NCBI GenBank assembly: GCA_964367745.1
Contig: CAYIYK010000003.1
Span: forward strand, 10,248-74,247
Length of the DNA: 64,000 bases
Source: an uncultured Candidatus Saccharibacteria bacterium
GTDB lineage: Bacteria; Patescibacteriota; Minisyncoccia; Phycocordibacterales; PALSA-1337
Reading direction: 5' to 3'
The notes beneath the pieces were generated by a model. That model was not told the origin of the DNA, ran no database searches, and saw only the letters and a list, made by a program, of their open reading frames with translations. This document shows, piece by piece, positions 20,056 to 57,975 of this stretch. Position numbers and translations under genes: made by a program. The first letter of the stretch is position 1, and each line of letters begins with the position of its first letter.

Positions 20056-20724
20056 ATGAAAATCCTGATTATTGAAGACGATGTAGATATTTCCAGTTTC
20101 ATAAAGGACAATCTTACAGAGAGTACATATTCAGTTGAAGTCGCAAAGGATGGACCTGATGGATCATTTCTGGCCAGAACAAATTATCACGATGTTATCA
20201 TAATGGATTATTCACTTCCTTCAAAAGACGGAGTTTTGGTTTGTGAAGAGATAAGATCATCAGGTGTTGAAACACCCATAATATTCCTAACCGTACATAC
20301 AGACGTCAAAAAGAAGGTTAAAGCATTAGAAAAAGGTGCGGATGACTATATGACTAAACCTTTCTCTATCGAAGAGTTAAAAGCGAGGATACAAGCTCTA
20401 GTGCGTAGACCTAGGAAAATCGAAAGTCCTGTACTGATAGTTGGAGACCTAGTTTTGGATACACACAAAAGAACAGTTAGAAGAGGTGAAACACCTATTT
20501 ATCTAACTAGAAAGACTTATGATCTATTGGAATATCTTATGAGGAATAAAGGTATAGTGCTTTCAAGGGGATCTATAATGGAATATGTATGGAACTCAGA
20601 TAGTGATCCATTCTCAAATACCATAGAAGCACATATCCTAAACCTCAGAAAGAAAATCAATGTTAGAGGTAAAAAGGATATACTAAAGAATATTCCAGGT
20701 AGAGGTTATATTATGGGGTCCTAA
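20056..20724 (+). CDS. OmpR-family response regulator (receiver plus winged-helix). It is an orphan: no histidine kinase gene is adjacent.
   Basis: MKILIIEDDVDISSFIKDNL...DVIIMDYSLPSKDG...GADDYMTKPFSIEELKARIQALVRR...LTRKTYDLLEYLMRNKGIVLSR... Confidence 0.8.
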   Translation: MKILIIEDDVDISSFIKDNLTESTYSVEVAKDGPDGSFLARTNYHDVIIMDYSLPSKDGVLVCEEIRSSGVETPIIFLTVHTDVKKKVKALEKGADDYMTKPFSIEELKARIQALVRRPRKIESPVLIVGDLVLDTHKRTVRRGETPIYLTRKTYDLLEYLMRNKGIVLSRGSIMEYVWNSDSDPFSNTIEAHILNLRKKINVRGKKDILKNIPGRGYIMGS

Positions 20725-22957
20725 ACTTACCTTCTTCTATTTGCTTTATAGCCTCATCTACTTGAGACTTTATAAGTGGGAATCTTTCTTTTGCTTTCTT
20801 TAGAAGTTCAATCGCTTGGTATTCTTGTTTACTCAATAGATAAACATAAGCTAGAGATGAATATACTTCTTGATTGTCTTGATCTTTAGCTAATATCTTC
20901 TTATATATTTCAATAGCTTTATCGTACTGTTTTGACAATACATAAGCATTTATAACTCTTGGATCGCTGAATACTTCGAAATCATCTCCAAATAGCTTCT
21001 TCGCTTTTACTTCTTCACCTGCCGTTATAAGAGCTGTAACGTAAGTAGTCTTGGCGATTGGATTGTCTGTTGCTGATTGATACGCTTTGTCTAATATCTC
21101 AACTGCTTCTTTATTTTTACCGATATTTAGATAGTTGACGGCTAGTTCAAATATTATACTTTGCTTGTTTGGAGAAAGTTCATTTGCTTTTTCAAGTAGT
21201 GGTGTAGCTGTATTAAAATCTCTTATAGTATCATAATAACTTCCACCAATAATATATATTCTTGCATCATTCGGAGTTTTCTTTATTTGATTTTCTATTT
21301 CTTTCTTTGCCAAATCGTAGAATGCAGCCTTTTTATCTTGTTGCATTTGTGGATTTTGTATTACATTTGCTGAACAATTTAATAGTTGCTCAACCGACTC
21401 TTGATTTGCAACTGTCTGTCTTAGTTTGAATATTTTTTCAAATGGTACTACTGATACTGTTTGAGGATTTGAACAAGCTATAAGTGCATTTATAAGTCCT
21501 GTATTCGCTTGTATAGCGCGCACATTCACAAAATACATTGAAGTAATGAATAAGATAACAACAACAGGTACATATACATAATCTCTTACTGTTTCAGCAT
21601 CTTCAGATATTGATTTGCTGTAATTTTTAAATATAAATAAATCTTTATTCTTTCTTAATGAATGAACAAAAGCGAGCAATGTAAAGAACATTACATAACT
21701 TGTTTGATTGTCGAATACGAATACATTGTGTATTGCATATCCTACCAATAGACCGATAAGTATAGATTTTTCACCAATAGTTTTTTCACTTTTAATGATA
21801 AAGATTAGAGAGATTAAATATAGAGCTAGATACGCAACTAATCCTAGTATTCCTCCGGCAACAAACCAATCTAGGAAAACACTGTGTGCTCGATCAAACC
21901 ATTGCTCATGTCTCCACATTTCAGGATTGTAATGTGAATTGAATATATAGTTAAAGTTCTCTTGCCCAACTCCGATAATTGCTGTCTTTGGGCTCTCTGT
22001 AATTCCCTTTATAGCCATAGGCCAAATAAATCTTCTTGCTTGAGTCTTTGTATCTGAAATAGATATAGAAGCCAATCTTCCCAATACTTCATTCTTTTGA
22101 ATCCAACTAGCATTTCTATTGAAATAAAATAGTGTACCGATAACAACTACTAGTAGAATAACTGAACCAGAAACTACTCTACTTATATTTGATTGACCAC
22201 TACTCTTTCTACCAAAAATTGTATAAATAGCACATGAAGCAATAATAGCAATCGTCCAACCTATGATAGTTCCTCGAGTTGCTGTTTGAAACATTATAAA
22301 AGAGAAAAATGCTGCGGCAATAGCATATGAATAGAACAAATGCTTCTTTGCAAAATAACTTATAGCCAAATATCCCGCAATAAATGCATTAAATAACATA
22401 TAAACCGCCATGTATGCAGAGTTACCTAGAGATGCATCGACTCTACTTCCTTGATGTGTTTCTGCCCAACCGAAAAACTGTGTTAGACCGTAAAGTGCAG
22501 TTATAAATCCAGAAACAATTACAACATTGAAAAACTTATGCCAACTCTCTTTTGTCTTAAGTACTGAAGATAGAACCATGAAATAACCCCAAAGGTGTAT
22601 TATCATCAACCAACCTTCCATTCTTTCGAAGTTTGACCAAATACTTCTAAGTGGATTTAGACCAGCTAAGTCAGCAATCAGAGCAATAAGAGTAAATATA
22701 CCTATAGAAATAGATATTGCATTGCATCGCGGAAGAACACTTCTATCTGTTCCGACAACACTAGTGCCTCTTTCTCTGAAAACAAGAATCAGCCATAGAG
22801 CAAAGACAATTTCAACAATTATTCTAAAAGCGAATCCTTTACCAGTGATGAATGGAAAGAATAAAGAATTAACGACGTAAGTTGGGATAAATGGGATTAC
22901 TGCTAAACCGATAATAATTGCGTATTTGATTAAAGTATTTATTGTTGCATTGTTCAT
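20711..22957 (-). CDS. O-antigen-ligase-family (Wzy_C-like) polytopic membrane protein with a C-terminal TPR-repeat domain
   Basis: 748 aa. The N-terminal ~430 aa have about 12 TM helices and a large loop between late helices, as in WaaL/PglL. The C-terminal ~300 aa are TPR-like (YYDT..., AVNYLNIGKNKEAVEILDKAYQ, SSLAYVYLLSKQEYQAIELLKKA). Confidence 0.45.
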   Translation of the reverse strand: MNNATINTLIKYAIIIGLAVIPFIPTYVVNSLFFPFITGKGFAFRIIVEIVFALWLILVFRERGTSVVGTDRSVLPRCNAISISIGIFTLIALIADLAGLNPLRSIWSNFERMEGWLMIIHLWGYFMVLSSVLKTKESWHKFFNVVIVSGFITALYGLTQFFGWAETHQGSRVDASLGNSAYMAVYMLFNAFIAGYLAISYFAKKHLFYSYAIAAAFFSFIMFQTATRGTIIGWTIAIIASCAIYTIFGRKSSGQSNISRVVSGSVILLVVVIGTLFYFNRNASWIQKNEVLGRLASISISDTKTQARRFIWPMAIKGITESPKTAIIGVGQENFNYIFNSHYNPEMWRHEQWFDRAHSVFLDWFVAGGILGLVAYLALYLISLIFIIKSEKTIGEKSILIGLLVGYAIHNVFVFDNQTSYVMFFTLLAFVHSLRKNKDLFIFKNYSKSISEDAETVRDYVYVPVVVILFITSMYFVNVRAIQANTGLINALIACSNPQTVSVVPFEKIFKLRQTVANQESVEQLLNCSANVIQNPQMQQDKKAAFYDLAKKEIENQIKKTPNDARIYIIGGSYYDTIRDFNTATPLLEKANELSPNKQSIIFELAVNYLNIGKNKEAVEILDKAYQSATDNPIAKTTYVTALITAGEEVKAKKLFGDDFEVFSDPRVINAYVLSKQYDKAIEIYKKILAKDQDNQEVYSSLAYVYLLSKQEYQAIELLKKAKERFPLIKSQVDEAIKQIEEGKFRTP

Positions 22958-22992
22958 AATATGGAGATGATATCATATTATGAACATGTTAT

Positions 22993-23940
22993 CTATTGAA
23001 ATTTCTTTAATTTATTGGCTATAAATATATCAGTATCTCTTCTAGATTCATAAGTCATACCTCCTGTATGTGGAGCGATGATTACATTTGAATATTCTTT
23101 TGCAAACTTCACTAATGGATGATTCTTGCAACTATTTTTTGTAAATAGAATCTCACCATCTAGAACGTCAGCTGTATAACCGGCAATCTTTTTTTGCTTT
23201 ATCATAGTCATCAAATCACCTTCATGAACTATTTTGCCTCTTGAAGTATTTATAAGATACGCAGTTTTCTTCATAAGACTCATAGTCTTTTTATTGAAAA
23301 GGAATTCTGTTTCTGGATTCAAATGTACGTGTATAGAAATAAAATCACTTTGTTTTATAAGCTCTTCGAAACTAACTTTTTTCCAATTTAGATTTGATGA
23401 TTCAACTTTTGGATCAGTGAATAGAACTTTCATACCCAAAGCCTCTCCATATCTTGCCATCCATTTTCCAAGTCTACCAAGTCCAACAACTCCCAATGTC
23501 TGACCATTCAGTGAATGCCCTTTGAACTTTTCTCTATTCCATTCCCCCTTTAGAACTGATTGAGTTGAACTAGGAATATGTCTTGAAGAAGATATGAGTA
23601 ATCCCAAAGCTAGTTCAGCAGTGCCAGTAATAGTATTTAGGAAATCATCTTCACCCTTTAGACTTAGAACTTTTATACCCTTTTCCTCAGCGTATTTTAA
23701 ATCGATATGATCCAAACCAGTTGTTGCGGTAACAAGGAACTTTAGATTTTTAGCTTTTGATAGGACTTCACTATTAAAGTTCAATCCCAAACCACAAACT
23801 ACTACATCATATTTTTCTATCTTTTTTAATAGTTCTTGATTTGTAGGTATAACATAATCAACCTTACCTAGAATGTTTAGAATCTTTTTTGCTTCAGGGT
23901 CGAAATCTTTACCGATTGTATTTAGTATTTTGTAGGCCAT
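22993..23940 (-). CDS. D-isomer-specific 2-hydroxyacid dehydrogenase (NAD-binding)
   Basis: GVVGLGRLGKWMARYGEALGMKVLFTD is the Rossmann motif, and the catalytic region is R...E...H (NTSRGKIVHEGDL...APHTGG). Confidence 0.7.
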   Translation of the reverse strand: MAYKILNTIGKDFDPEAKKILNILGKVDYVIPTNQELLKKIEKYDVVVCGLGLNFNSEVLSKAKNLKFLVTATTGLDHIDLKYAEEKGIKVLSLKGEDDFLNTITGTAELALGLLISSSRHIPSSTQSVLKGEWNREKFKGHSLNGQTLGVVGLGRLGKWMARYGEALGMKVLFTDPKVESSNLNWKKVSFEELIKQSDFISIHVHLNPETEFLFNKKTMSLMKKTAYLINTSRGKIVHEGDLMTMIKQKKIAGYTADVLDGEILFTKNSCKNHPLVKFAKEYSNVIIAPHTGGMTYESRRDTDIFIANKLKKFQ

Positions 23941-23978: not shown

Positions 23979-24422
23979 TTAAACCTTCGGCACCTTTATT
24001 ATAACCAACCTAGCTTTCGTAGAAGTCTTATGTTGATGTGGCTCTCCAGCAGGAATCCATAACCAATCTCCAGGTTTCATCACAACTTCTGTTCCACCCT
24101 TTATTTCTTTTGCTTTCCATTCCCTATCATCTATACTCCCATCAGCATTCTTTTTTACCCAAGGGTCTACCATTTCTCCTCCATAGATAAAGATAACTTC
24201 TCCTTCAAGACAAAACCATAGATCAGCTTCATGCTTGTGTATCTCTGCTTCATTTGAAATATTTATATCCTCCAATATATTCATAGGAACTTTATTCAAA
24301 GCAGAAAAAGCTTTTAGAGGTTCCAAAAGTTTTTTTGTTGGCGTGTCGGCACTAGGACTTGATAGAGTACTATCGATTAAATCTTTACTGATAAAAGCAC
24401 AATTTGATTTATTATTTTCCAT
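23979..24422 (-). CDS. Cupin-domain protein
   Basis: 147 aa. The beta-barrel motif FCLEGEVIFIYGGE...PGDWLWIPAGEPHQH is cupin-2-like. Confidence 0.4.
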   Translation of the reverse strand: MENNKSNCAFISKDLIDSTLSSPSADTPTKKLLEPLKAFSALNKVPMNILEDINISNEAEIHKHEADLWFCLEGEVIFIYGGEMVDPWVKKNADGSIDDREWKAKEIKGGTEVVMKPGDWLWIPAGEPHQHKTSTKARLVIIKVPKV

Positions 24423-26408: not shown

Positions 26409-27347
26409 TCAAAGCCTGCGAGCGGTGACCACAACCGACGGGTGGTATGCGGTAAAGTTGAGGAGATTCTGGTCTGCCTCAAAAACGCTACGGATTCCAA
26501 TACCAACAATCTTGAGCTTGTCCTCAATCGGAAGCTTGTCGAGCGGTTCCCAACGGCACCAAGTGGCCCAGGCATTGCGAATGAAATCGACGATTCGACT
26601 CCCAACAACAGGAACGAGGGTTTCATTCACACGGAAGATCTCGAAACCATTTTGCTCGAGAGCAGACTTGAGATCAACAAGCGAGAATGCCTTTGCTTTG
26701 GGTGCCCAGAGATTTTCGCGAGTGAAATCAGGATACTTTGACCGAACATAATTGTAAGCTGCATCGTGCGCAATCCTATAAAGCGGATGCGAGAGTTCGG
26801 TTGTGATCTGATCCGGCCCCGGCTCAGACTTTGACCGGAAATCGTGCAAATTGCACTTCCAATCCGAATAATTGGACGGACCGAAGTCAAAACTGAGAGT
26901 TCCACGAACCTTGAGGCAAGAACTGATTGCTTTCAAGGAAGCATCGAGGGTATCCCGCAAAAGATGAAACATCTGACAACAGACAGCGGCGTCATGAAGA
27001 CCTACAACATGCCGATCCAGAAATTCCGCTTTCATTGTGTAAGCATTCACCCTCGGATTACCCATCAAATTGAGGAGAAGGAAATGCATCATGCTTTCAT
27101 TCGGCTCAACAGCCGAAACGAGCGCCTTCGTCCTCTTGAGAATAACTGCTGTACTGACACCAGTGCCGGCGCCAATCTCCAACACTGAATTGATTCCATT
27201 TTTGTTGGCTTGAATCGCCTCACTAACAACGAATTCAGCCATTTCAGTGTAGTATTTGTCACGACCATTGAAGGCCGAGTATGCTGCGCCGACATTCCCT
27301 TCGAAGAGTTTCGAACCGAGGATTGCACTAACATTACTTGTACTCAT
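26409..27347 (-). CDS. Class I SAM-dependent methyltransferase of unknown substrate, in a ~1-kb tract of anomalous GC (~50%)
   Basis: 312 aa. Motif I is VLEIGAGTGVST. The DNA of this gene is visibly GC-rich against a ~30% background, which produces many spurious overlapping ORFs in the six-frame track. Confidence 0.55.
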   Translation of the reverse strand: MSTSNVSAILGSKLFEGNVGAAYSAFNGRDKYYTEMAEFVVSEAIQANKNGINSVLEIGAGTGVSTAVILKRTKALVSAVEPNESMMHFLLLNLMGNPRVNAYTMKAEFLDRHVVGLHDAAVCCQMFHLLRDTLDASLKAISSCLKVRGTLSFDFGPSNYSDWKCNLHDFRSKSEPGPDQITTELSHPLYRIAHDAAYNYVRSKYPDFTRENLWAPKAKAFSLVDLKSALEQNGFEIFRVNETLVPVVGSRIVDFIRNAWATWCRWEPLDKLPIEDKLKIVGIGIRSVFEADQNLLNFTAYHPSVVVTARRL

Positions 27348-28507: not shown

Positions 28508-28537
28508 CCCTCACGTAAAAAGCGTGGGGGTCTTTTT
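28508..28537 (+). terminator. Rho-independent terminator
   Basis: A ccctcacg ... cgtggggg stem (8 bp, one G-U pair) followed by TCTTTTT. Confidence 0.5.
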
Positions 28538-29693: not shown

Positions 29694-29696
29694 AGT

Positions 29697-30680: not shown

Positions 30681-30681
30681 T

Positions 30682-34312: not shown

Positions 34313-34383
34313 TTTATGATAAACAAGTATATCACAACAAAATATTGCTTCAATTAAGATTAAATTCTGATATACTGTCTCAA

Positions 34384-45883: not shown

Positions 45884-46573
45884 TTATTTTGTAAATCTTG
45901 TTCTTATAATAGTACCGAGAATCATAAATCCGTGCTTCCAATTTATTTTCTTACCTTCTGAATAACTTCGTGGGTTGTAATGTATTGGTACATCTACAGT
46001 CTTATATCCCATTTTCAAAGCCTTACAAACCAATTCATTCTCATAATCAAAACTATTTGCTTTAACATCGATTTTTCTTGCTAATTCTTTTGTTATGGCT
46101 TTATAACATCCTTCATATTCACCTGCATGATTTAAGTATAAAATATTTGTAAGCCAAGTTATAGTGAAGTTCCCTATTGTACCAAGGAAATAAAGTACTT
46201 TTCTCCCCGTATGTCTATCTTCTATTCTAACCCCTAGAGTCACTTCAGTTTTACTATCAAGTATAGGTTGAATAACCGCTTTAAAATCATTTGGATCATA
46301 TTCTAGATCTGCATCTTGTATTATAAAAATATCTCCTGTTGCTTCTTTGAAGCCTTTTTTAACAGCTGCACCTTTTCCAGGAATAGTTTCTTTAAAAACC
46401 CTAACTCCTTGTATTGAACTAGCGATGTTGTAAGTATTATCTTTTGAATTGTTATCGACAACAATAATCTCTTTTTCGATATTCCCAATATCCGCCTTTT
46501 TTACCAATTCTACTATCTTTTGAATTGTCTTTTCTTCATTGTATGCAGGAATAACGATGGAAAGTTTTTTCAT
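45884..46573 (-). CDS. GT2 glycosyltransferase (Dpm1-like polyprenol-phosphate sugar transferase)
   Basis: LSIVIPAYNEEKTIQKIV...IIVVDNNSKDNT...GKGAAVKKGFKEATGDIFIIQDADLEYDP. Confidence 0.7.
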   Translation of the reverse strand: MKKLSIVIPAYNEEKTIQKIVELVKKADIGNIEKEIIVVDNNSKDNTYNIASSIQGVRVFKETIPGKGAAVKKGFKEATGDIFIIQDADLEYDPNDFKAVIQPILDSKTEVTLGVRIEDRHTGRKVLYFLGTIGNFTITWLTNILYLNHAGEYEGCYKAITKELARKIDVKANSFDYENELVCKALKMGYKTVDVPIHYNPRSYSEGKKINWKHGFMILGTIIRTRFTK

Positions 46574-49676: not shown

Positions 49677-50687
49677 CTATTTTATTATCTTAAAAAGCTT
49701 GTCTGACAAAATAGACAATGAATGCTTGTTTGAAAAATCACTTAGTCTAGACAAAATATCCAATCGCTCTTTTTCAGAATAATTCATAACTCTCTCAATT
49801 TTATTTTTTAATTCATCTGTATCCCCTTGTTTAAAAATCAAATCATCACTTATTTCTCCTCTCAAATTATCATTTGAAGCAATAACAATACAACCACAAG
49901 CCATAGCCTCAAATATTGTCTTATCATACATTCCACTTGAAGATAGATTTATAAAAATTTCGTATTTAGAATATAGATCTATAGTTTCAATATTTGGAAC
50001 TCCTTTATGAAATTCTATTAATCCAGAAGATTTATTTTTTAATTCTTCATAATAAATTTTATCTTTTTCGATTGGATCACCGTAGACTGCAACTTTGATA
50101 CTTGGATCATTTATTTTATTTATTACATCTACTAAAACATGAATATTTTTTGAAGGTGATATTCTACCTATAGACAATATAGATTTTCCTAATCTAGTTA
50201 TATTTTTATTCGGTTTAAAGTTTTCTAAATCTACACCTACTGGCATTATTTCAGTCTTTCTGTATTTTGCTGTATATGAAAACTTAGATGTGCAAAACAC
50301 CTTTTTACAGAACATTGAAGCTATATCAGTAAGCATTGAACCTGAATGATGATTCCTCCACATGTATATATTCTTATTCATGATCTTCCACATAACTCCA
50401 GCGAGTAAGATATACTCTTGGTTCATATGAACAAAAACACTGTTGTATTCATTTCTCAATCGCCAAATATATTTATAAAAATTTAAAATATATTTTATCT
50501 TTGATTCCCCTTTTTCTTTACCCAAAGAAAATACTCTAACATTTTTAGGTAAATCGTATTCGCCTTTATAAAGACATATTACATTTACACTTTCATAGTT
50601 TTCTGAGAAAACTCTTACCCAATTATGAAAAAAGCCTAGTACAGGATCATTTTTATCAATCTTTTGAGTTATGATTAATAATTTCAT
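49677..50687 (-). CDS. GT4-family glycosyltransferase
   Basis: The C-terminal domain is GRISPSKNIHVLVDV...KVAVYGDP...IFINLSSSGMYDKTIFEAMACGCIVIASN (the EX7E-type motif). Confidence 0.65.
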   Translation of the reverse strand: MKLLIITQKIDKNDPVLGFFHNWVRVFSENYESVNVICLYKGEYDLPKNVRVFSLGKEKGESKIKYILNFYKYIWRLRNEYNSVFVHMNQEYILLAGVMWKIMNKNIYMWRNHHSGSMLTDIASMFCKKVFCTSKFSYTAKYRKTEIMPVGVDLENFKPNKNITRLGKSILSIGRISPSKNIHVLVDVINKINDPSIKVAVYGDPIEKDKIYYEELKNKSSGLIEFHKGVPNIETIDLYSKYEIFINLSSSGMYDKTIFEAMACGCIVIASNDNLRGEISDDLIFKQGDTDELKNKIERVMNYSEKERLDILSRLSDFSNKHSLSILSDKLFKIIK

Positions 50688-51775
50688 TTAATTTTATCTA
50701 TAATCTTTGAAGCTATATCTTCGCTTGTCCAATCGACAATACTTGCTCCTACATCCTTTGCGATACCTACGTCAGTTGAGATTATTTTGCAATTATTCGC
50801 TTCAGCTTCTTTGAATGTAAGACCGTAACCTTCATACCATGAACAAACTAGAAATACATCGCAACCTTTATAGTATGAGGTGAGATCAGTCTGCCACCCT
50901 TCAAATACAATATTTGATGAAATCTTCAGAATTTCAGATTTTCTTTTAAGATAATCCTGCATTGTTCCAGAACCGACAATCACGAGTCCTGTATCTGGTT
51001 TTTTAGCCAGAACAATCTTCATCGCATCTATAGCCATTGAGAAATTCTTTTCAGCTTCTATTCTTGAAACCATAAGAATGATATTTTTAAATTGAGGGAA
51101 TTTTTCTTTTAAAATAAAAGATGTTTTATCATTCTTTATATAATCAATATTTATATCTATAGGTTTTACTATTATATCTTCTGGATTAAATCCCCTTTTA
51201 GCTAGTGAATCTGCAATTTTATTTGATACTACTCTTATGATATTTGCATGATTTAAAGTAAAACGAGATATAAAAAGTCTTATTCTATTTAAAATAGAAT
51301 TCAAAATACCGATTCTTGCATCGACGAAATACGGACTATGCAGATCGGTATGTATTTGTATCAACAATTCAGAATTCTTTCTTTTACTATTTAGACATTT
51401 CCCCACCAAAGCGGTTTCAAAAGGATCTTGGCAAGTTATAAGTATTGGTATTTCTGAGTTTATTTCATTAATAATTTTTACACCGATCTTTCTCGCATCG
51501 CTTACATAGTTCCATCTTACAAATGATTTCGTAGAATAGATTTTGCAGTTTTTTGCTATTTCTTCATCATTAACTTTTGAATCTGAAAAGACAATAATAT
51601 GTAATTCTTTATATTGCTTTGAATATTCAAGCATTCTTCTTCTAACAGCACTTTTCTCTACAAGTATTTGTCTATCAGTTGAAATCATTATCACAGAATG
51701 ATTGGAATAATCTTTATATGTTGTTTTATAAACATTATTTGATTCTTTCATAAATCGAAATGATTTCATTCCCAA
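50684..51775 (-). CDS. GT4-family glycosyltransferase
   Basis: ILMVSRIEAEKNFSMAIDAMKIV...GLVIVGSG...VFLVCSWYEGYGLTFKEAEANNCKIISTDVGIAKD. Confidence 0.7.
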   Translation of the reverse strand: MGMKSFRFMKESNNVYKTTYKDYSNHSVIMISTDRQILVEKSAVRRRMLEYSKQYKELHIIVFSDSKVNDEEIAKNCKIYSTKSFVRWNYVSDARKIGVKIINEINSEIPILITCQDPFETALVGKCLNSKRKNSELLIQIHTDLHSPYFVDARIGILNSILNRIRLFISRFTLNHANIIRVVSNKIADSLAKRGFNPEDIIVKPIDINIDYIKNDKTSFILKEKFPQFKNIILMVSRIEAEKNFSMAIDAMKIVLAKKPDTGLVIVGSGTMQDYLKRKSEILKISSNIVFEGWQTDLTSYYKGCDVFLVCSWYEGYGLTFKEAEANNCKIISTDVGIAKDVGASIVDWTSEDIASKIIDKIK

Positions 51776-52757
51776 TATTCTCCCAACTATGAACCCAATT
51801 AAACTTCTTTACCTTATCTGCTTGTATTTTTCTATTCTTAGGGTCAGATATCCAGACAATCTTTTCGACTATATCATTTTTATTCATTGGATCTATAAAA
51901 ATCGCGCAATCTTTTACTCTATCTGATATACCATTCTCTTTTGTAAGAATAAAAGGAGTACCAACTCTTATGGCGTCAAAAATCATATTTGGACTTATAT
52001 CGCCAATCGAATTTAAAATCACCGCATAAGATCGTCTCATTCTCTCTTGGAAATTATCATAGACTGCTTTTGTAGTATCGAATTCTATATCTTCAAAACC
52101 TTTTTCTTTGACTTTATCCTGAGCAATTTTAAATGAACTCTTTAACAATTCTAGATTCTTCCACTTCAATTCTCTTGTACCAGCAACAAAAACTCTATTC
52201 TCTGGCTCTATTTGTTCATCTCTTTCTCCACAGAAATTCTCAACGATCATATTCTTTTCTGAATCAAGTTTATATACTTTTTCAAAAATATCTCTTTGCC
52301 ATTTTGTACTAAATATTATTGCTGAAGCATTCCTCATAGAATCACCTCCAACTTTAAATATTACTTTTTCTTTTTTAGATAGCTTATTAAGTGATGTATT
52401 ATAGAAATTTTTAAATAAAACCAAGTCTCCTGTTCTTTCAACATAATTTTCCCATAAGAAATCTCCTCCAGTTCTTATGATGTATTTTTTCCTCATAAGC
52501 TTGCAGGCATACATAGTAGGTACTGCTGCACTCCATGTATCAAGTACGAGTATCAAATCCGCATTCCATCCTTTTCTAAAAATCTTTAGAAAAAATAAAA
52601 AGTGTCTGAGGAATTTTGGGAATGCTCTCTCCCAACGATATGCAGCAACTTTTACATCATGACCCTGCTTTTTCCAGGTTTCATAAAGATTTCTAGCATA
52701 TTGAGCTGGACCACCAATATCTGGTGGATATATTCCTGATGAGATTAGAATTTTCAT
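51735..52757 (-). CDS. GT4-like glycosyltransferase; N-terminal paralog of 46570-47709
   Basis: MKILISSGIYPPDIGGPAQYARNLYETWKKQGHDVKVAAYRWE, with a GT-B C-terminal domain. Confidence 0.5.
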   Translation of the reverse strand: MKILISSGIYPPDIGGPAQYARNLYETWKKQGHDVKVAAYRWERAFPKFLRHFLFFLKIFRKGWNADLILVLDTWSAAVPTMYACKLMRKKYIIRTGGDFLWENYVERTGDLVLFKNFYNTSLNKLSKKEKVIFKVGGDSMRNASAIIFSTKWQRDIFEKVYKLDSEKNMIVENFCGERDEQIEPENRVFVAGTRELKWKNLELLKSSFKIAQDKVKEKGFEDIEFDTTKAVYDNFQERMRRSYAVILNSIGDISPNMIFDAIRVGTPFILTKENGISDRVKDCAIFIDPMNKNDIVEKIVWISDPKNRKIQADKVKKFNWVHSWENIGNEIISIYERIK

Positions 52758-53944
52758 ATTACCTTTAAGAATACCTTATTCTTCATATCACTTGCAATGA
52801 GGTTCCATTGATACTTTCTTTCTACCATATCCAAAGCATTTTTGACTATTTTCTCTTTTAAACTCTTATCATTTAAAAGCATTTCAACTTTCCAAGCTAT
52901 GCTCTTTGGATTTTTTACTTCACACAAAAGGCCTGTTTCTCCATCTTTAAGAAAATCTACTATTCCTCCAACCGGTGTTGCTATAACAGGAATTCCAGCA
53001 GCCATCGCTTCTATATATGAATTACCAAAACCTTCAGACAAAGATGGTCTTATGAAAATATCTGATACATGGAGATATTTTGGCATATCTACATGTTTAA
53101 CAAAACCTAAGAAGATCACTCTGTTATCGAGATTTAATCTCTTAGTTCTTTGCTTTAGCATTTCTTCTTCATGACCTGTACCCAAGACAAGGAATTTAAC
53201 ATTTTCTGGTAGATATGTTAGAGAATCAATGATATCTATAGTTGCATTTTTCTCAACCAATCTACTTGTAGTTACAATAAAAATATCTTTATCTTTTTTA
53301 TTCAGACTCTTTTTTAAATCATTAAATTCATTTTCATTTTTTCTATTTGAAAATAGAGAAAAATTCACGCCATTTGGTACAACAACAATCGGTGAACTTG
53401 CTCCCATATTTTTTGACCAGGTTGATAGGAAATTTGATATTACTTGAACAATATCCGCCTTTCTAAAAATCCTCATGAAAGATGATTTGAATATTCCTTG
53501 GCGAATCTTGAAGTTATCACCTTCTTGTATTGAAAGTACAAATGGAATATTTGGATTGAATATTTTAAATAAATAACCAGCAAAACCAGCATAACTTGCC
53601 ATCATTGACCATACTAAATCGTATTTATTTTTTCTATTTAGTTGTAGTGCCTTTATAAAAGCAAAAACTGGAAAAGTTAGTTTTGATAATGGGAATATCT
53701 TTGAACTTTTTGTATTACTACCAAACCAAGGCATACCAGCTCTATATACATTTATATTCCCTATTCTTTCAAATTTAGGAGCCTGTTTTCTTAAGGTTAT
53801 CATATCGAATTCCATATCAGACGGAAGGATACGATCAGTAATTTCTTTAATCGCTATTTCTGCCCCACCTATGAATCTTGGATAGTAAACTAGCGAAAAA
53901 ATGAGTATTTTCTTACTTTTTTGTTCATTTTTTACTTGTTCCAT
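52754..53944 (-). CDS. GT4-family glycosyltransferase
   Basis: IVTTSRLVEKNATIDIIDSL...FLVLGTGHEEEMLKQ...FIRPSLSEGFGNSYIEAMAAGIPVIATPVGGIVDFLKDGETGLL. Confidence 0.7.
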   Translation of the reverse strand: MEQVKNEQKSKKILIFSLVYYPRFIGGAEIAIKEITDRILPSDMEFDMITLRKQAPKFERIGNINVYRAGMPWFGSNTKSSKIFPLSKLTFPVFAFIKALQLNRKNKYDLVWSMMASYAGFAGYLFKIFNPNIPFVLSIQEGDNFKIRQGIFKSSFMRIFRKADIVQVISNFLSTWSKNMGASSPIVVVPNGVNFSLFSNRKNENEFNDLKKSLNKKDKDIFIVTTSRLVEKNATIDIIDSLTYLPENVKFLVLGTGHEEEMLKQRTKRLNLDNRVIFLGFVKHVDMPKYLHVSDIFIRPSLSEGFGNSYIEAMAAGIPVIATPVGGIVDFLKDGETGLLCEVKNPKSIAWKVEMLLNDKSLKEKIVKNALDMVERKYQWNLIASDMKNKVFLKVI

Positions 53945-53948
53945 TTTA

Positions 53949-55823
53949 TTACTTTACCTTAAGTACATCACGAAGTACATCTTCAGGAACCTCTCTTTTT
54001 GTGTCACTTTTTTCGTGATGATTAGCATGACTTTTATGTATTTCATTTGGTTTATGGTCACTTGAAGTATTTTGATGATTCGAATGATTTGAACCATCTG
54101 AATCTTTTTTTACATGCTCGTCCTTATGTGCCAAAACTGATGCCAAAGCACTCTTTAATTCATTTATTCTTTGTGGATGTGCATCTTTATGATGATTATG
54201 AGCCTTAGGTGTATTTGTTAGAGAATTCAGAGATACAGACTTTAACTTAGGAAGATTTGGTTGGGGTTTTGGATAATTTGATTGTTGCACATGATTTTGG
54301 ACACTTGGCTGTACAGGTGCTTGGACTGATTGTTGAGGTGGTTGCTGAATAGGCTGTTCTGCGACAATTGGCTTTGGTGGAGGTGGAGGTATATGTGCAG
54401 GTGCAGGTGTGGGTGCAACTGTAGCTACTGGTTTGGGCGGTTGTGTATTTGTTGCAGGAGTACTAGAACCATTCTGAGTAGAATTCGAAGCGGTAGATGC
54501 ACCGGGCGTAGGATTCTTTGGAGTTACAACAGGCTTTATTGGTGCAAGCCATTCTTCGATTTTCTTTTCTACTTCTGGTCTCTTACTAGCAAACTGTCTT
54601 CTTGATTCTTCAATCACAGCAAGAGCATTGGACTTCTCTGGTAAAGGAATGGGTGGCAATGTTGTAGCAGAAAATGGTGATGAACTTATACCATCAATCA
54701 TCAGTTTCAAATATATTTGAAATATTCCGAGATTAACAATATCTTCAGCGGTGAACTGTGGTGCGAATTCTTTTTCCAAAACTTCTGCATCATAAGCGCC
54801 AACACGGAACACGATCATTGTTCCAACGTTTCCAAAAACCGCAGCTCTAACCTCTTCTTCCATTTGCTCTATATACTGGTGAGCCATAGTAAGATTCAGT
54901 TTATATTTTCGAGCTTCAGAGAGAATATCTGCAAAAGATTCATTTGCAAATGATTGGAATTCGTCTACGAATAGATAGAAGTTTGGAAGTTTTTTTATAA
55001 CATTATCTGACACATCAGCACGAGAAAGTGCAGCGAGATATATCTTGGTTATTATCATTCCACCCAAAAGATTTGCATTCGATTCTCCGATTCTTCCTTT
55101 TGATAAGTTAACTATAAATATCTTACTCTTATCCATCATTTCACGGAGATTGAAAGATGATTTTGGTTGACCGATCATATTTCGTATCAGAGCATTCGCA
55201 GTGAACTGACCGATTTTATTTTGTATTGCAGGAACAGCTTCGGCAGCCATTCTTTCTGTATAGTTTGCAAATTCTTGTACCCAGAATGATTTTACTGATG
55301 GATCAGTAACACAGGCCACTACTTGCTTCCTGAATTCTTTATCAGAAAGCATTCTATTTACCCCAAGCAGGGTTGCGTCAGGATATTCAAGTAAAGCCAA
55401 AAGAGTATTTGTAAGAATATACTCCATTCTCGCTGACCAAGCATCTTGCCAGATCTTTTTGAATGTACTCATAAGACCAGATACAACTAGATGTCTTTTG
55501 TCATGATCAACGTTTTCAAGTACGTTGAATGATATAGGATAGTCCATATCAAAAGGTGCAAAATACACAACGTCTTGTCTTCTATTCTCAGGAATATATT
55601 CTAGTAGCAATTCCGCTGTCTTACCGTGAGGGTCGAGGAAGGCCATACCTTCCCCATTTTTTATATCTTGCACAGCCATGTTTTCAAGTAGAGTAGATTT
55701 ACCCATACCTGTCTTACCGATCACATAAACGTGCTTTGTTCTATCTTTGGCTTTAATACCAAAACTTACCTTTTTATTTCTGGCATCAGTTTGACCAAAA
55801 TATGTAATCTTTTCTTCATTCAT
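53949..55823 (-). CDS. Soluble P-loop ATPase of the VirD4/TraD (type IV coupling protein)/HerA-like superfamily, with a long C-terminal Pro/Gln-rich then His-rich disordered tail
   Basis: 624 aa. Walker A: HVYVIGKTGMGKSTLLENM. Walker B: NFYLFVDEFQSF. There is no N-terminal TM anchor. The C-terminal ~200 aa read PKPVATVAPTPAPAHIPPPPPKPIVAEQPIQQPPQQSVQAPVQPSVQ... and then HNHHKDAHPQ...HSNHQNTSSDHKPNEIHKSHANHHEKSD. Confidence 0.5.
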   Translation of the reverse strand: MNEEKITYFGQTDARNKKVSFGIKAKDRTKHVYVIGKTGMGKSTLLENMAVQDIKNGEGMAFLDPHGKTAELLLEYIPENRRQDVVYFAPFDMDYPISFNVLENVDHDKRHLVVSGLMSTFKKIWQDAWSARMEYILTNTLLALLEYPDATLLGVNRMLSDKEFRKQVVACVTDPSVKSFWVQEFANYTERMAAEAVPAIQNKIGQFTANALIRNMIGQPKSSFNLREMMDKSKIFIVNLSKGRIGESNANLLGGMIITKIYLAALSRADVSDNVIKKLPNFYLFVDEFQSFANESFADILSEARKYKLNLTMAHQYIEQMEEEVRAAVFGNVGTMIVFRVGAYDAEVLEKEFAPQFTAEDIVNLGIFQIYLKLMIDGISSSPFSATTLPPIPLPEKSNALAVIEESRRQFASKRPEVEKKIEEWLAPIKPVVTPKNPTPGASTASNSTQNGSSTPATNTQPPKPVATVAPTPAPAHIPPPPPKPIVAEQPIQQPPQQSVQAPVQPSVQNHVQQSNYPKPQPNLPKLKSVSLNSLTNTPKAHNHHKDAHPQRINELKSALASVLAHKDEHVKKDSDGSNHSNHQNTSSDHKPNEIHKSHANHHEKSDTKREVPEDVLRDVLKVK

Positions 55824-55875: not shown

Positions 55876-57441
55876 TTAATTATGACTGTATATTGTATAT
55901 AAATTATCACTATATACCCTCTTCAAATTTGAGTATTTTAATAAATCATTTCTATTATCCTGTATTACATATTGAATATCGTATTTTTCTAGATTTTTTA
56001 ATATCCTTTCTTGTGTGTTTGAACTCATAACATCATGAATTCTCTCTGGCTTTGATATCCACTGCCCCGCATATAATGTCCAAAAAACATAATTTCTTGA
56101 ATAAAGCGGTATATATTGTGAAAGAGATTCCGGTGCCATAAATATTGAATCTTTAGAATTCGACTTTATCCAATTAAGTATGGGGACATATCTTTGAACA
56201 TAAATAGTATAATCTAAAGAGTTTTTATATGAATTAATTTGAATCAAAATAGAATTAAAAATACAAAGAATAGACAGCAGGTATATTATTGCAATACAAA
56301 TTTTTGATTTTATATTGTCAGACAGAAATTCCTTTATAAAATAGACTATTGAGATAACCAAGACTGGACTGAATACATACATTTCGAAATGACCATATTG
56401 CATTATAAGTCCAGTTATAACATGTTCATTTCTAGTTAGAAAACAAGCAGATATTAGGCCTGAAATAAATATAAATTCATCATTAATAATTTTATTCTTC
56501 TTATAAACCAAAAAGAGCAGCGTAGAACAGACTATAAAAATTGATATTCCAAACAAACTAACATCAGGAATATGACTCATTCTTAAATATTCATGTGGGA
56601 TGGTTAAATAGTACTCATGAGACATTAGATTCACAATCTGATAAAAGACTGGAATAGCCAATATTATACCTACTGATAAACTGACAACAAGACCCTTAAG
56701 TCTGTCAAATTCTTTTCTAAAAAAATAAATCCCAATAAAAACTAGATTTAACACAGTTAAATATGCATATGTAAAGAAATAAACATAGAATGACAAACCA
56801 AAGAAAATACCGAGGATGATATACCACAGTCTAGTATTCTTTTTAATTGCTAAATACAAAATATTTAAATATAAGAAAAAATACAAAGAACTGAATTGAG
56901 GATTAACAGGTCTAGAGAATATAAGGAATTGATCCTCATCAGTTACAAACCTAAACAGATTCAATAAATCATGAATATTTAACAGATCAACGAAATTCAA
57001 GAGATTATACCCAAGCACAATAAACAGTGACCCGAGTATAGATATGTGAATATTCCTAGTAATTCTATCGAGCAGCAAAAAAGACAGAAGGAAGATAATG
57101 ATCGGCAACACAAGTTCGTACAAAATCTTTAAATCCAGCGTATCTATACTTAATATGATACCTGGCAGTGCCAATATCATAGACGAAATAGATGAATCAA
57201 AGTGTGGGAAATTATAGCCATACTCTTTTATAAAAGGATTACAATTAAACGTACAACCCATGTATGCTCCTTGAATTTTATTCAGATATAGTGACTCTGC
57301 ATCGGTATTCATTATTGGTATACCACTAAAGTTAGTACTGTGAATAAATAAAATATTTGGCAATACATAAATAACACCGCAAACTAGAGAGATGATAAGG
57401 ATCGATAGAAATTTCTTAGAAAACATAAATAAATTATACAT
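55876..57441 (-). CDS. Large polytopic membrane protein immediately downstream of pilA. It is a candidate pilin glycosylation/assembly factor, in the position of tfpO/pilO O-oligosaccharyltransferases. The likely ATG is at 57441; the six-frame ORF starts at a TTG at 57444.
   Basis: About 520 aa with at least 12 predicted TM helices and several larger loops. It is on the same strand as pilA, 51 nt downstream. No soluble enzymatic motif was recognised by eye. Confidence 0.35.
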   Translation of the reverse strand: MYNLFMFSKKFLSILIISLVCGVIYVLPNILFIHSTNFSGIPIMNTDAESLYLNKIQGAYMGCTFNCNPFIKEYGYNFPHFDSSISSMILALPGIILSIDTLDLKILYELVLPIIIFLLSFLLLDRITRNIHISILGSLFIVLGYNLLNFVDLLNIHDLLNLFRFVTDEDQFLIFSRPVNPQFSSLYFFLYLNILYLAIKKNTRLWYIILGIFFGLSFYVYFFTYAYLTVLNLVFIGIYFFRKEFDRLKGLVVSLSVGIILAIPVFYQIVNLMSHEYYLTIPHEYLRMSHIPDVSLFGISIFIVCSTLLFLVYKKNKIINDEFIFISGLISACFLTRNEHVITGLIMQYGHFEMYVFSPVLVISIVYFIKEFLSDNIKSKICIAIIYLLSILCIFNSILIQINSYKNSLDYTIYVQRYVPILNWIKSNSKDSIFMAPESLSQYIPLYSRNYVFWTLYAGQWISKPERIHDVMSSNTQERILKNLEKYDIQYVIQDNRNDLLKYSNLKRVYSDNLYTIYSHN

Positions 57442-57471
57442 CAAAAAACACCCTATGGGTGTTTTTTGATG
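57439..57471 (-). terminator. Perfect 15-bp inverted repeat with a 3-nt loop between pilA and the downstream gene. On the minus-strand transcript it is a hairpin followed by a U-rich tract whose 3' arm contains the downstream gene's AUG.
   Basis: catcaaaaaacaccc-tat-gggtgttttttgatg on the plus strand, about 25 nt after the pilA stop codon. The minus-strand RNA reads 5'-caucaaaaaacaccc-aua-ggguguuuuuugAUG-uauaauuuauuuauguuuuc. Confidence 0.55.
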
Positions 57472-57495
57472 TAACCGTATTGTTACCAGATTGTA

Positions 57496-57975
57496 TTAAG
57501 ACGCAGGGCAAGCTGTAGCATTTATTGCAAGAACAGTTGTAACTTGTCTTGAAGCGCCTGTATTATCTACACACCATCCAACTGGTGTACCACTCACTGA
57601 AGCCTTCAGCGGAGCCCAGATAACCCATGTTGCTGATGCATCGTGACATTGTGCAGTGTTCCAAGTTGAAGCAGTTCCATCAGCAAATACCGCAGCTGTT
57701 CCTCCGAAAGCGGCTTGAGCAGCCATTACACTGTCTCCAATAACATTAGCACCTGTTAACGCACATACGGCATCATAAACATTAGTTCCATTATCATAGA
57801 ACAATTCTGCCTCAGCTCTAGCACCTGCTAGGTTTGACTTTATAGCTGTATCAGCTCCCTTTGAACGTGCTGTGTTTAGTGAAGCCAAAACAACTGATGA
57901 CAATATACCGATAATAGCGATAACTACAAGCAACTCAATCAATGTAAAACCTTTTTGCAAATATGATTTCTTCAT
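57496..57975 (-). CDS. pilA: Type IV (class III signal peptide) major pilin
   Basis: MKKSYLQKGFTLIELLVVIAIIGILSSVVLASL is the prepilin leader (a G-F cleavage site, with Glu at +5). The C-terminal disulfide loop is CVDNTGASRQVTTVLAINATAC, followed by PAS-stop. The protein is Ala/Gly/Thr-rich. pilC, pilT and pilB lie upstream. Confidence 0.85.
   Translation of the reverse strand: MKKSYLQKGFTLIELLVVIAIIGILSSVVLASLNTARSKGADTAIKSNLAGARAEAELFYDNGTNVYDAVCALTGANVIGDSVMAAQAAFGGTAAVFADGTASTWNTAQCHDASATWVIWAPLKASVSGTPVGWCVDNTGASRQVTTVLAINATACPAS

Follow-up and report, generated by a model that had tools for sequence, protein, structure and literature searches.

Pilins of group IV Pseudomonas aeruginosa strains are arabinosylated by TfpW, a glycosyltransferase (GT) of the GT-C fold encoded immediately downstream of pilA, and in group I strains TfpO is encoded at the same position (bioRxiv 10.1101/2020.04.19.049825). 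The donor of TfpW is a polyprenyl-phosphate (polyprenyl-P)-linked monosaccharide, and TfpO and the PglL enzyme of Neisseria transfer undecaprenyl-diphosphate (undecaprenyl-PP)-linked glycans, with relaxed demands on their structure, to pilin as well as to other proteins. This work concerns a 64-kb stretch of contig CAYIYK010000003.1, hereafter “the window” (the whole stretch of DNA that was analyzed), in which a type IV pilus (T4P) operon adjoins a long run of glycan biosynthesis genes, including a set for a nonulosonic (sialic-type) acid (NulO). The source is a metagenome-assembled genome (MAG) of the Paceibacteria, part of the Candidate Phyla Radiation (CPR; also Patescibacteria).

To our knowledge, every CPR bacterium in culture lives attached to other microbes; for the Saccharibacteria, type IV pili are required for this attachment. 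CPR bacteria are generally described as being without lipopolysaccharide (LPS). For CPR pilins, glycosylation is so far a software prediction only (PMC11623550). Genes for sialic acid in CPR have been mentioned only as annotation, in 2016 for genomes of Peregrinibacteria (PMC4736985), and a literature search found no paper linking Patescibacteria with nonulosonic acids.

A protein O-glycan with a terminal NulO has been described in Tannerella forsythia, where Tanf_01245 and TFUB4_00887 are required for the terminal pseudaminic (Pse) or legionaminic (Leg) acid derivative; BFO_1060 of strain 92A2 is homologous to both (PMC5420450). The targets are the S-layer and other surface proteins (PMC5420450; PMC12871550). 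The O-oligosaccharyltransferase (O-OTase) of the Bacteroidota is still to be identified (PMC12871550).

An earlier note on this DNA had read the glycan genes, co-oriented and contiguous with the pilus operon, as a possible system that puts sialic acid on the pilin or another surface protein. The analysis described here favors, on balance, a different explanation: the region from 20.7 to 53.9 kb would be a cell-surface glycan biosynthesis locus in a fixed chromosomal slot with exchangeable content, and the likeliest connection to the pilus would be a separate GT-C enzyme encoded after pilA.

The glycan locus, its flanks and the pilus operon

Genes were called from an open reading frame (ORF) map together with Pfam and NCBIfam scans of the window proteins; functional assignments throughout rest on sequence, predicted structure and gene context. 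A PilB search with one genome per GTDB species gave 80 loci, every one from a Patescibacteria/CPR MAG, with taxon labels that include Paceibacteria, ‘Ca. Taylorbacteria’ and Parcubacteria and, in many cases, the generic ‘uncultured Ca. Saccharibacteria’. The proteins of the window itself belong to an NCBI MAG contig of 76.5 kb. The window proteins were compared with these 80 PilB-anchored loci by tblastn. The nearest PilB relative, at 97% identity, is a sister species (CAZVQB010000002.1, locus L095). A relative with 88% PilB identity is represented by L082 and L097, two parts of one 81-kb contig.

Of the two conserved flanks of the glycan locus, one is formed by three GT4 genes, a soluble TraD-like ATPase and the T4P operon, and the second by a ligase with a WaaL-type fold and a fused TPR domain, an OmpR-type response regulator that occupies the identical position in L094-L097, and a DedA-PAP2 gene that stays beside the regulator and the ligase gene in L095 and L097. 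Positions 1-20 kb hold core genes, including those for ribonucleotide reductase, GroES/EL, RNase J, enolase and phosphoglycerate mutase. In the 30-52 kb part, the GC content is 0.29-0.31 vs. 0.33-0.36 in the flanks, and no tRNA or Rfam element marks a boundary of the island within the window.

In the sister species, the ligase gene (29520-31766, 92% identical) and pilB (64815-66527) lie on one contig, 33.0 kb apart vs. 37.8 kb in the window, a spacing shorter by 4.8 kb. The order is that of the window, running from core genes through the response regulator, the ligase, a 2-hydroxyacid dehydrogenase, the NeuB-NeuA fusion (97%), an EamA transporter and NeuC to a methyltransferase, two TagF-like genes, another methyltransferase and a further TagF-like gene. 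The sister species is without the cupin gene, the PhyH-like gene and the methyltransferases at 26409-27347 and 34231-35520, and the first of these two was probably a recent gain by the window. The EamA gene keeps its position in L086, L088 and L095, and its identity to the sister-species copy is just 59%, vs. 92-98% for its neighbors. These absences and the divergent EamA gene look like small indels of glycan-modifying genes and a local hot spot of recombination. A patch at 26300-27400 has a GC content of 0.40, vs. about 0.33 around it.

The exchange is larger in the relative with 88% PilB identity. Here, the T4P genes and pilA are followed by the GT-C gene, a GT2, a PemK gene, the ATPase and two GT4 genes (L082). 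About 27 kb further along the same contig (L097) come a GT4, a methyltransferase, a GT2, a GT11, more GTs, a methyltransferase and an ABC-transporter-type Wzt and Wzm set, which lies directly beside the Wzy_C-TPR ligase gene (65% identity), followed by the response regulator and the PAP2/VTT gene. Neither NeuBA nor NeuC is found within 10 kb of the ligase in L097. The earlier note had suggested looking in related genomes for the signature of an accessory island, and this is what the variable content of the sister species and this relative amounts to.

The NulO cassette recurs elsewhere with the same internal order (Wzx, GT9, three TagF-like genes, methyltransferases, NeuC, NeuB, NeuA, dehydrogenase, ligase), next to a ligase that is 61% (L087) or 39% (L086) identical to that of the window. 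In L088, a Kaiserbacteria-like contig (ANAN16-1 scaffold_677), the NulO genes lie beside the Wzy_C-TPR gene, which is followed by MurB and SecA. The cassette thus moves as a block with the ligase (L086, L087, L088). On its ligase side, it is bordered in these other CPR genomes by MurB and SecA or by a sensor kinase, and the roughly 10 kb visible on either side of the queried gene contain no T4P genes.

Because the flanks are conserved and the content between them is exchangeable, the region resembles an O-antigen or capsule locus. The earlier note had seen no LPS or capsule context for such a set of genes; this no longer holds, since the behavior of the locus is that of such O-antigen or capsule regions, with a WaaL-fold ligase in one of its flanks. 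The conserved WaaL-fold/TPR ligase as the mark of a variable glycan locus in the relatives examined is new here.

The order of the T4P machinery genes is conserved in 80/80 loci. The junction with the glycan genes was counted in the 52 loci with at least 4 kb of sequence downstream of pilC. Only 9 of them run into the TraD-like ATPase, all with a PilB identity of at least 83%, and there the ATPase is followed by GT4 genes wherever the locus reaches far enough. The other 43 continue with one to five further pilins, after which the window proteins find no match. In L081, L092 and L023, minor pilins and the prepilin peptidase PilD directly follow pilA (with the GT-C gene between them in the first two), and in L081 and L092 a DNA ligase gene comes next. 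The pilA-ATPase/GT4 junction is thus a feature of one subclade and not general to T4P operons. The window itself holds a single pilin gene by motif scan, rich in serine and threonine, and no prepilin peptidase in its 64 kb; in this clade, PilD and the minor pilins must be encoded at another place in the genome.

Minus-strand orientation and tight spacing hold from 63996 down to 44172, save for one plus-strand gene (47755-48663). Within this run, a strong terminator-like hairpin (57473-57437) starts 22 nt after the pilA stop codon and overlaps the start codon of the GT-C gene. This would fit a highly expressed pilin transcript that mostly ends there, and it weakens the argument from co-transcription, although read-through would still be possible. 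Since the linkage is lineage-specific synteny, adjacency does not show the pilus to be the target. The claim that the glycan locus and a complete NeuC/NeuB/NeuA-type pathway are physically joined to the T4P operon was borne out, also in the sister species, and the step from there to a pilus target was not, given the junction in 9/52 loci, the cassette without T4P genes elsewhere and the hairpin. The earlier note had itself named an island conserved next to unrelated genes as a sign against its reading, which, at least in part, is what the MurB/SecA contexts represent.

Pilin glycosylation is instead plausible through a different gene. The first gene after pilA, noted earlier just as a membrane protein, encodes a 522-aa protein that matched no Pfam or NCBIfam model and whose predicted structure has a GT-C fold. 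Two acidic residues, D48 and E50 (T-D-A-E, D-x-E), are at least 90% conserved right after the first helix, in loop 1, and would be the catalytic ones. The C-terminal domain (residues 430-522) is modeled as a small α/β domain without TPR.

Homologs with at least 31% identity lie among pilin genes in 7/7 contexts. The gene comes directly after pilA in the window and L001; directly after pilA, and then followed by minor pilins and PilD, in L028/L092 and L081; among pilins and followed by minor pilins and PilD on the P0020 contig; and directly after pilA with an adjacent GtrB-like GT2 in L082. In L002, two copies of the pilin gene enclose it together with a methyltransferase and a GtrB-like GT2. 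It is on the pilA strand in 6/7 contexts and inverted only in L002. In L081 and L092, the examined flank shows no glycan locus. By analogy with TfpW, we put at even chances, or slightly better, that the enzyme glycosylates the pilin with a polyprenyl-P-linked sugar; the two GtrB-like GT2s of the island would possibly supply the donor. The GT-C gene after pilA is the only supported functional link to the pilus, and the Pfam-less GT-C subfamily embedded in CPR pilin clusters is new here.

Alternatively, this enzyme may modify an extracytoplasmic substrate other than pilin (a wall polymer or a lipid, for instance) and lie at a recombination hot spot after pilA. The family is large, with 3425 representatives in an exhaustive profile search (1121 at E ≤ 1e-30), and more distant members (24-29% identity) are found, with no pilin nearby, among the GtrA, GT2 and further GT-C genes of general glycan loci. 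The site after pilA also holds a PemK toxin gene, an AAA_14/DUF4143 gene and a Y1 transposase in other genomes. This alternative is a real one, if somewhat short of even chances: all seven contexts of close members are flanked by pilins, those in L081, L092 and the P0020 contig fall within a run of pilA, minor pilins and PilD, the strand is that of pilA in all but one, and TfpW and TfpO are precedents at exactly that position.

A few observations concern the same site. A word-indexed search had suggested a GT-C family of only 28 members, an artefact that the exhaustive search corrected. The public annotation of the GT-C protein (P0001, 478 aa) starts 44 codons later, which would lose the first transmembrane helix; this helix is confidently modeled and present in homologs, and the longer form starts inside the pilA hairpin. 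A C-terminal pilin serine of the TfpO type was considered and dropped: the pilins of the window and the sister species end in CPAS, the others adjacent to GT-C genes in C, CI, CP or CPAN. The site after pilA seems to gather accessory cargo, with PemK following the GT-C/GT2 pair in L082, the Y1 transposase between pilins on the P0020 contig, and the order pilin, AAA_14/DUF4143 ATPase, GtrB-like GT2, pilin, PilD, pilin in L023 (14557-18995). Two near-identical pilin genes of L002 (14542-18538) have their 5′ part covered by a perfect direct repeat, at least 300 nt long and with its copies 3697 nt apart, that brackets the inverted cassette of GT-C homolog, GtrB-like GT2 and methyltransferase; the arrangement may reflect a recent insertion into, or duplication at, the pilin locus, or else an artefact of assembly.

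The ligase, the nonulosonic acid and the proposed route

The 748-aa protein at the far end of the locus matches Wzy_C (PF04932) with 60.9 bits (cutoff 31.7) over residues 214-377, the extracytoplasmic-loop domain of a polytopic protein. Its predicted structure has a WaaL-type transmembrane fold, with the LPS O-antigen ligase WaaL as the closest solved fold, and Foldseek returned matches to the TPR part alone, including the TPR domain of O-GlcNAc transferase. The TPR domain would lie outside the cell, a placement for which the hydropathy topology is too noisy. There are 3471 homologs at E ≤ 1e-10, of which more than 120 clusters align over the full length with 45-96% identity, and an alignment of 26 sequences has a mean column identity of 55% and about 100 invariant columns. 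The ligase is retained beside both Wzx-type and ABC-transporter-type cassettes.

This high conservation, the retention beside both types of cassette and a fused domain of the protein-binding type point to a ligase or oligosaccharyltransferase with a conserved acceptor. A Wzy polymerase was considered and appears improbable given the conservation and the retention beside an ABC-transporter cassette. The acceptor may be one or more surface proteins, which would make the enzyme a general O-OTase like PglL and TfpO; to this we give nearly even chances, and to a wall or lipid acceptor a somewhat smaller, still considerable, share.

A related alternative is that the whole locus makes a non-protein polymer (a capsule, secondary cell-wall or teichoic-acid-like polymer, or a lipoglycan), with the Wzy_C-TPR protein ligating it to lipid or wall or polymerizing it. 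Wzx, a Wzy_C-family protein and TagF-like proteins form the classic toolkit for polysaccharides and teichoic acids, the cassette of the PilB-88% relative is of the Wzm/Wzt type, as for O-polysaccharides, and WaaL is the closest solved fold of the ligase. We consider this alternative unlikely, as the window contains no lipid A-core genes and no LCP-family ligase, the conservation of the ligase speaks against a polymerase, and the fused TPR domain would suit recognition of a protein partner just as well or better.

The NulO pathway is represented by NeuC and a NeuB-NeuA fusion. The fusion is not an assembly artefact, since it was seen in 15 near-identical cluster members from four sources (NCBI, JGI, ENA and Logan). 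NeuC scores 342.7 bits with TIGR03568, above the equivalog cutoff of 235.9, and its matches in the PDB are about equally close to LegG (5xvs, 190.7 bits) and human GNE (185.5 bits). The NeuB domain has 223 bits with Pfam NeuB, 252 with NCBIfam NeuB_NnaB (cutoff 399.65) and 214 with PseI, and its PDB matches follow in the order N. meningitidis NeuB (7e-46), SpsE (2e-42) and PseI (5e-39), with close scores. The cytidylyltransferase domain matches CTP_transf_3 (97.8 bits) and, as the best NCBIfam model, PseF (172.5, cutoff 205.7), and its PDB matches are CMP-N-acetylneuraminic acid (CMP-Neu5Ac) synthetases (6ifd, 6e-32). Thus, the NeuB and NeuA domains score under every NCBIfam equivalog cutoff, and the earlier identification of the product as sialic acid is not established by these scores, with NeuC equally LegG- and GNE-like.

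The simplest reading of the sequences is that the product is Neu5Ac, made from UDP-N-acetylglucosamine, for which the chances would be about even. It is favored only because neither the 64 kb of the window nor the L086, L087 and L095 versions of the cassette contain a dehydratase, aminotransferase or N-acetyltransferase specific for Leg or Pse. The alternative is a legionaminic-type or other non-Neu5Ac NulO, with the genes for a diacetamido-trideoxyhexose precursor outside the window. LegG, a GDP/UDP-diNAcBac (diacetylbacillosamine) 2-epimerase, is the best PDB match of NeuC, the cytidylyltransferase scores best with PseF, a 60%-identical homolog is labeled legionaminate synthase by JGI, and L088 has two sets of NulO genes together with a dehydratase-like gene. 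We regard this as doubtful: the 4,6-dehydratase, aminotransferase and N-acetyltransferase are missing from the window and that cassette, NeuB_NnaB scores higher than PseI, N. meningitidis NeuB is the best solved match, and NeuC is nearly as close to human GNE.

NeuB as such is not unusual in CPR, as 4566 homologs were found there at E ≤ 1e-20, including NeuB-NeuC and triple fusions. Fusions in metagenomes (P0038, P0064, P0045-P0048) include NeuB-NeuA, a NeuB-NeuC protein of 762 aa and a three-domain protein of 986 aa, and L089 encodes a 625-aa NeuA + NeuB protein in an archaeal-looking context with Nre and TrmB. L088 has two NeuB, two NeuC-like epimerases and two CTP_transf_3 proteins along with its dehydratase-like gene, beside Wzy_C-TPR, which suggests two different nonulosonic acids in one CPR organism.

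Three TagB/TagF-like GT-B paralogs flank NeuC and NeuBA here and in L086, L087, L095 and L088. Their mutual identity is 26-32%, and they have SWD, LVR..P and KP motifs in common. Two of them match Glyphos_transf (41.9 and 34.2 bits, cutoff 22.1), and the third falls under the cutoff (17.8). All three match NF046086, the BFO_1060 family, with 52.7, 47.8 and 82.9 bits (the last at E 2e-23), with partial profile coverage and without reaching the cutoff of 200; the paralog at 36479..37873 also matches TIGR04396, a surface carbohydrate biosynthesis protein (44 bits). No CDP-glycerol or CDP-ribitol supply gene (TagD/TarIJ) is present in the window and the NeuA domain is the sole cytidylyltransferase in the island, and therefore these paralogs may use CMP-NulO. 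This is a lead, and they would be distant relatives of BFO_1060 at best. The recurrent NulO cassette with three TagB-like transferases is new here.

From this gene content, we infer the following order of steps. NeuC, followed by the NeuB-NeuA fusion, would produce a CMP-activated NulO, while, on the cytoplasmic side of the membrane, GT4, GT2 and GT9 enzymes would assemble an undecaprenyl-PP-linked oligosaccharide. To this, the three TagB-like paralogs would attach the NulO from its CMP donor, and six methyltransferases and a dioxygenase would modify the sugars. Wzx would flip the lipid-linked glycan, the WaaL-fold/TPR enzyme would pass it on as one block, outside the membrane, to an acceptor that is conserved, and the DedA-PAP2 protein would recycle the carrier lipid. 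Separately, GtrB-like synthases, GtrA and GT-C enzymes would add single sugars from polyprenyl-P donors outside the cell. Glycosylation of surface proteins by the WaaL-fold/TPR enzyme is possible.

Several points weigh against this explanation. Sequence scores do not settle the type of NulO, either by NCBIfam or by PDB matches for NeuB/NeuA and NeuC, and the link from the TagB-like proteins to NulO transfer consists of matches far under the family cutoff. The lipid-linked route is without its first enzyme here, as no initiating phosphoglycosyltransferase of the WbaP/WecA type is present in the window; it may be encoded elsewhere in the genome, as wecA is in E. coli. About 15 kb between L082 and L097 (23.4-38.5 kb of contig GROS21-1 scaffold_153) are unseen and could hold NulO genes. 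The pilin-adjacent GT-C gene is sporadic, with 3/80 PilB loci. Finally, the whole island is linked to the T4P operon in the sister species too, and the pilus is a possible target; should the ligase be an O-OTase of broad specificity, its substrates could include pilin.

The proposal that the locus makes a methylated sialo-oligosaccharide for the pilus, co-regulated with the T4P genes and transferred to PilA by Wzy_C-TPR as a TfpO/PglL-type O-OTase, can draw on the contiguous and co-oriented genes, a sister species in which one contig keeps both linked, a Wzy_C domain shared with TfpO and PglL, the protein-binding character of TPR domains and a pilin rich in serine and threonine, but it appears improbable, as the ATPase/GT4 junction is missing in 43/52 T4P loci, the cassette and ligase lie beside MurB/SecA or a sensor kinase elsewhere, the ligase is kept with an ABC-transporter-type cassette and so is not tied to sialo-glycans, its gene is at the opposite end of the locus, 35 kb away from pilA, the hairpin after pilA resembles a terminator, and the C-terminal serine of TfpO targets is not conserved among these pilins. 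Equally improbable would be a “glyco-serotype” locus in which the WaaL-fold/TPR enzyme is a general O-OTase that loads variable methylated, sialic-type-capped glycans on pili and surface proteins, with the GT-C enzyme adding a second, pilin-specific sugar, to tune host-cell recognition and the evasion of phage or host defenses in ultra-small episymbionts that rely on type IV pili for attachment.

Other genes of the window

The features of the region are collected in Table 1. The genes listed earlier were all found in place, with a few corrections. One of the two supposed GT-C proteins between GtrB and the flippase (40390-41814) has no supporting match, and the other (41818-43476) has only a sub-threshold match to PMT_2; a Gfo/Idh/MocA gene (47755-48663, plus strand) and a PhyH-like gene (35521-36471) had been missed. 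The count of at least six methyltransferases dependent on S-adenosylmethionine (SAM) agrees with the six confirmed here, which start at 26409, 29697, 33365, 34231, 44600 and 45286.

Table 1. Features from the DedA-PAP2 gene to the pilus machinery, with positions in the window, strand and supporting matches (E-values unless given in bits)
Feature	Position	Strand	Evidence
VTT(DedA)+PAP2 fusion	18642..19925	-	Pfam PAP2 1.7e-17, VTT_dom 6.7e-17
OmpR-type response regulator, convergent with ligase gene	20056..20724	+	Response_reg + Trans_reg_C
Wzy_C + TPR ligase, 748 aa, boundary gene	20711..22957	-	Wzy_C 1.5e-16
D-2-hydroxyacid dehydrogenase, NulO-cassette member	22993..23940	-	2-Hacid_dh_C 2e-49
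Small cupin, variable accessory gene	23979..24422	-	Cupin_2 7.5e-10; DUF386 4.7e-4
NeuB+SAF fused to NeuA-type CMP-NulO synthetase, 626 aa	24432..26312	-	NeuB 4e-66; CTP_transf_3 1e-27
SAM methyltransferase in GC 0.40 patch	26409..27347	-	Methyltransf_12/25
EamA/DMT-family transporter in NulO cassette	27524..28477	+	EamA 5.7e-7
Hydrolyzing UDP-sugar 2-epimerase, NeuC/LegG class	28536..29693	-	TIGR03568
Methyltransferase paired with TagF-like genes	29697..30680	-	Methyltransf_23
Two paralogous TagB/TagF-like GT-B transferases	30682..33365	-	Glyphos_transf 8e-11, 1.7e-8
Methyltransferase	33365..34432	-	Methyltransf_23
Methyltransferase, variable gene	34231..35520	+	Methyltransf_23
PhyH-like Fe(II)/2-oxoglutarate dioxygenase, variable gene	35521..36471	-	PhyH 9.8e-5, 23.2 bits (cutoff 22)
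Third TagB/TagF-like GT-B paralog	36479..37873	-	NF046086 82.9 bits
GT9 glycosyltransferase	37874..38992	+	Glyco_transf_9 1.2e-17; kept in L087
Wzx-type lipid-linked oligosaccharide flippase	38978..40366	-	Polysacc_synt 30.9 bits (cutoff 28.2); L087 65%
Polytopic membrane protein	40390..41814	+	No family match
Candidate GT-C glycosyltransferase	41818..43476	+	PMT_2 8.6e-5, 23.2 bits, sub-threshold (cutoff 26.1)
GtrB-like polyprenyl-P sugar synthase (GT2)	43476..44240	+	Glycos_transf_2 1e-24
GtrA-family small membrane protein, putative polyprenyl-P-sugar flippase	44172..44603	-	GtrA_DPMS_TM 3.8e-25
Two methyltransferases, TylF-type O-methyltransferase and Methyltransf_11 (starts 44600, 45286)	44600..45879	-	TylF 7.7e-26; Methyltransf_11 3.6e-15
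Second short GT2, AglJ/dolichyl-P-hexose synthase type	45884..46573	-	Glycos_transf_2 9e-30; AglJ 119.5 bits, sub-threshold
GT4	46570-47709	-	Pfam
Gfo/Idh/MocA NAD oxidoreductase	47755-48663	+	Pfam
FAD (DAO-family) oxidoreductase	48629-49675	-	Pfam
Four GT4 genes; the three on the pilus side (50684-53944) belong to the conserved flank	49677..53944	-	Pfam
Soluble TraD/TrwB/VirD4-like P-loop ATPase	53949..55823	-	TrwB_AAD_bind 5e-9; T4SS-DNA_transf 5.6e-9; DUF87
GT-C-fold protein directly downstream of pilA, 522 aa	55876..57444	-	Predicted fold
Terminator-like hairpin after pilA	57437..57473	-	17-bp stem, T-rich tail
Major pilin, class III signal, Ala/Gly/Ser/Thr-rich globular part	57496..57975	-	N_methyl 2.3e-9; motif scan
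T4P machinery: PilC, PilT, receiver, PilB, 121-aa protein, PilO-like, PilN-like	58086..63996	-	Pfam

At the ligase end, the DedA-PAP2 fusion would, judging from its known families, dephosphorylate undecaprenyl-PP and flip undecaprenyl-P back. It could thereby pair a phosphatase with a flippase in one protein, beside an enzyme that releases the carrier. The 2-hydroxyacid dehydrogenase adjoins the ligase in L086, L087 and L095. The cupin has a weak signal resembling YhcH/N-acetylneuraminate anomerase (NF040884, 20 bits, far under the cutoff) and is found in L086 and L088, though not in the sister species L095.

Among the methyltransferases, that at 29697..30680 is conserved in L086, L087 and L095. 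Homologs of the one at 33365..34432 in L094/L095 and L087 are 315-316 aa long, and its true start is probably near 34312, giving 315 aa. As listed, this ORF and the divergent one at 34231..35520 overlap by about 200 nt; the latter probably starts near 34387, and it has no match in L095 and a 44% match in L086. The PhyH-like gene has a 68% match in L086.

In the middle of the island, the membrane protein at 40390..41814 found no match in Pfam, the PDB or hhalign profile comparison. An hhalign comparison of the pilin-adjacent GT-C family with the island's two membrane proteins yielded probabilities of 0.4% and 9.8%, and the PDB had no match. The one at 41818..43476 is a probable GT-C glycosyltransferase judging from its weak PMT_2 match, and L087 has a GT-C-type gene at the equivalent position. 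The neighboring GtrB-like GT2 has PpgS and PgfS as its best NCBIfam matches, both sub-threshold, and a 68% homolog of it adjoins the pilin-adjacent GT-C gene in L082.

The locus has five GT4 genes. That at 46570-47709 was found in only two short contigs of the metagenome scan, L090 and L091, which are unrelated, and in both it is accompanied by the Gfo/Idh/MocA gene, joined in L091 by the FAD oxidoreductase. By analogy with DprE1/DprE2, these two oxidoreductases could form a two-step oxidation-reduction sugar epimerase. The GT4 at 51735-52757 has 75-95% identity in L001-L006, L012 and L082, vs. 58-70% for its neighbors outside L001; with no NCBIfam match and weak Pfam GT4 signals, it behaves as a core gene and not as a locus-specific GT.

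The TraD-like ATPase has no hydrophobic segment, unlike membrane-anchored coupling proteins, and it carries a low-complexity C-terminal tail of about 230 aa that is rich in Pro, Gln and His. It is not obviously glycan-related, and DNA uptake or secretion may be raised as roles.

Comparison with known systems

The analysis provides concrete candidate genes: the WaaL-fold/TPR ligase, the NulO cassette with its three transferases, and a Pfam-less GT-C family. If the proposed explanation is true, it would account for strain-level variation of the surface in a large uncultured part of the bacterial tree and would show that Pseudomonas is not alone in glycosylating pilins with GT-C enzymes. Otherwise, this is an ordinary polysaccharide cluster that happens to adjoin a pilus operon.

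The closest parallel for the locus as a whole is with O-antigen and capsule loci that have WaaL. Here, too, exchangeable content of low GC lies between conserved flanks, the initiating transferase is outside the cluster, and one WaaL-fold enzyme serves both types of cassette, with Wzx in the window and Wzm/Wzt in the relative. The differences are the CPR host, the lack of lipid A-core genes within the window, and a ligase that carries a C-terminal TPR domain and is unusually conserved.

With the Tannerella forsythia O-glycosylation system, the locus shares TagB-like GT-B genes beside NulO synthesis genes, and methylated or otherwise modified glycans. It differs in that the matches reach just 48-83 bits vs. 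a cutoff of 200, there are three paralogs, and the NulO is probably not Pse. The GtrA/GtrB/GT-C systems (phage Gtr, CsbB/GtcA/YfhO, and PgfS/PgfM of S. mutans) likewise bring together a short GT2, a GtrA-like protein and polytopic GT-C-type genes, whereas in the window the PpgS, PgfS and AglJ matches are sub-threshold and one adjacent membrane protein is without a GT-C signature.

The ligase resembles PglL of Neisseria and TfpO (PilO) of group I P. aeruginosa in its Wzy_C domain and polytopic membrane fold. However, tfpO is found at the pilin locus, while the Wzy_C-TPR gene of the window is far removed from pilA and encodes the additional TPR domain.

For the GT-C enzyme after pilA, the nearest counterpart is TfpW, which has the same fold, is encoded right after the major pilin, carries an acidic motif in loop 1 and is sporadic in occurrence. 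TfpW is a protein of 646 aa with TPR, whereas that of the window has 522 aa without TPR and comes from a CPR host, in a group regarded as monoderm-like; no D-arabinofuranose pathway genes were found. The likeness is one of fold, position, motif and sporadic distribution; with no TPR domain and no match to an existing family model, the window protein is an analog of TfpW, not a member of its family.

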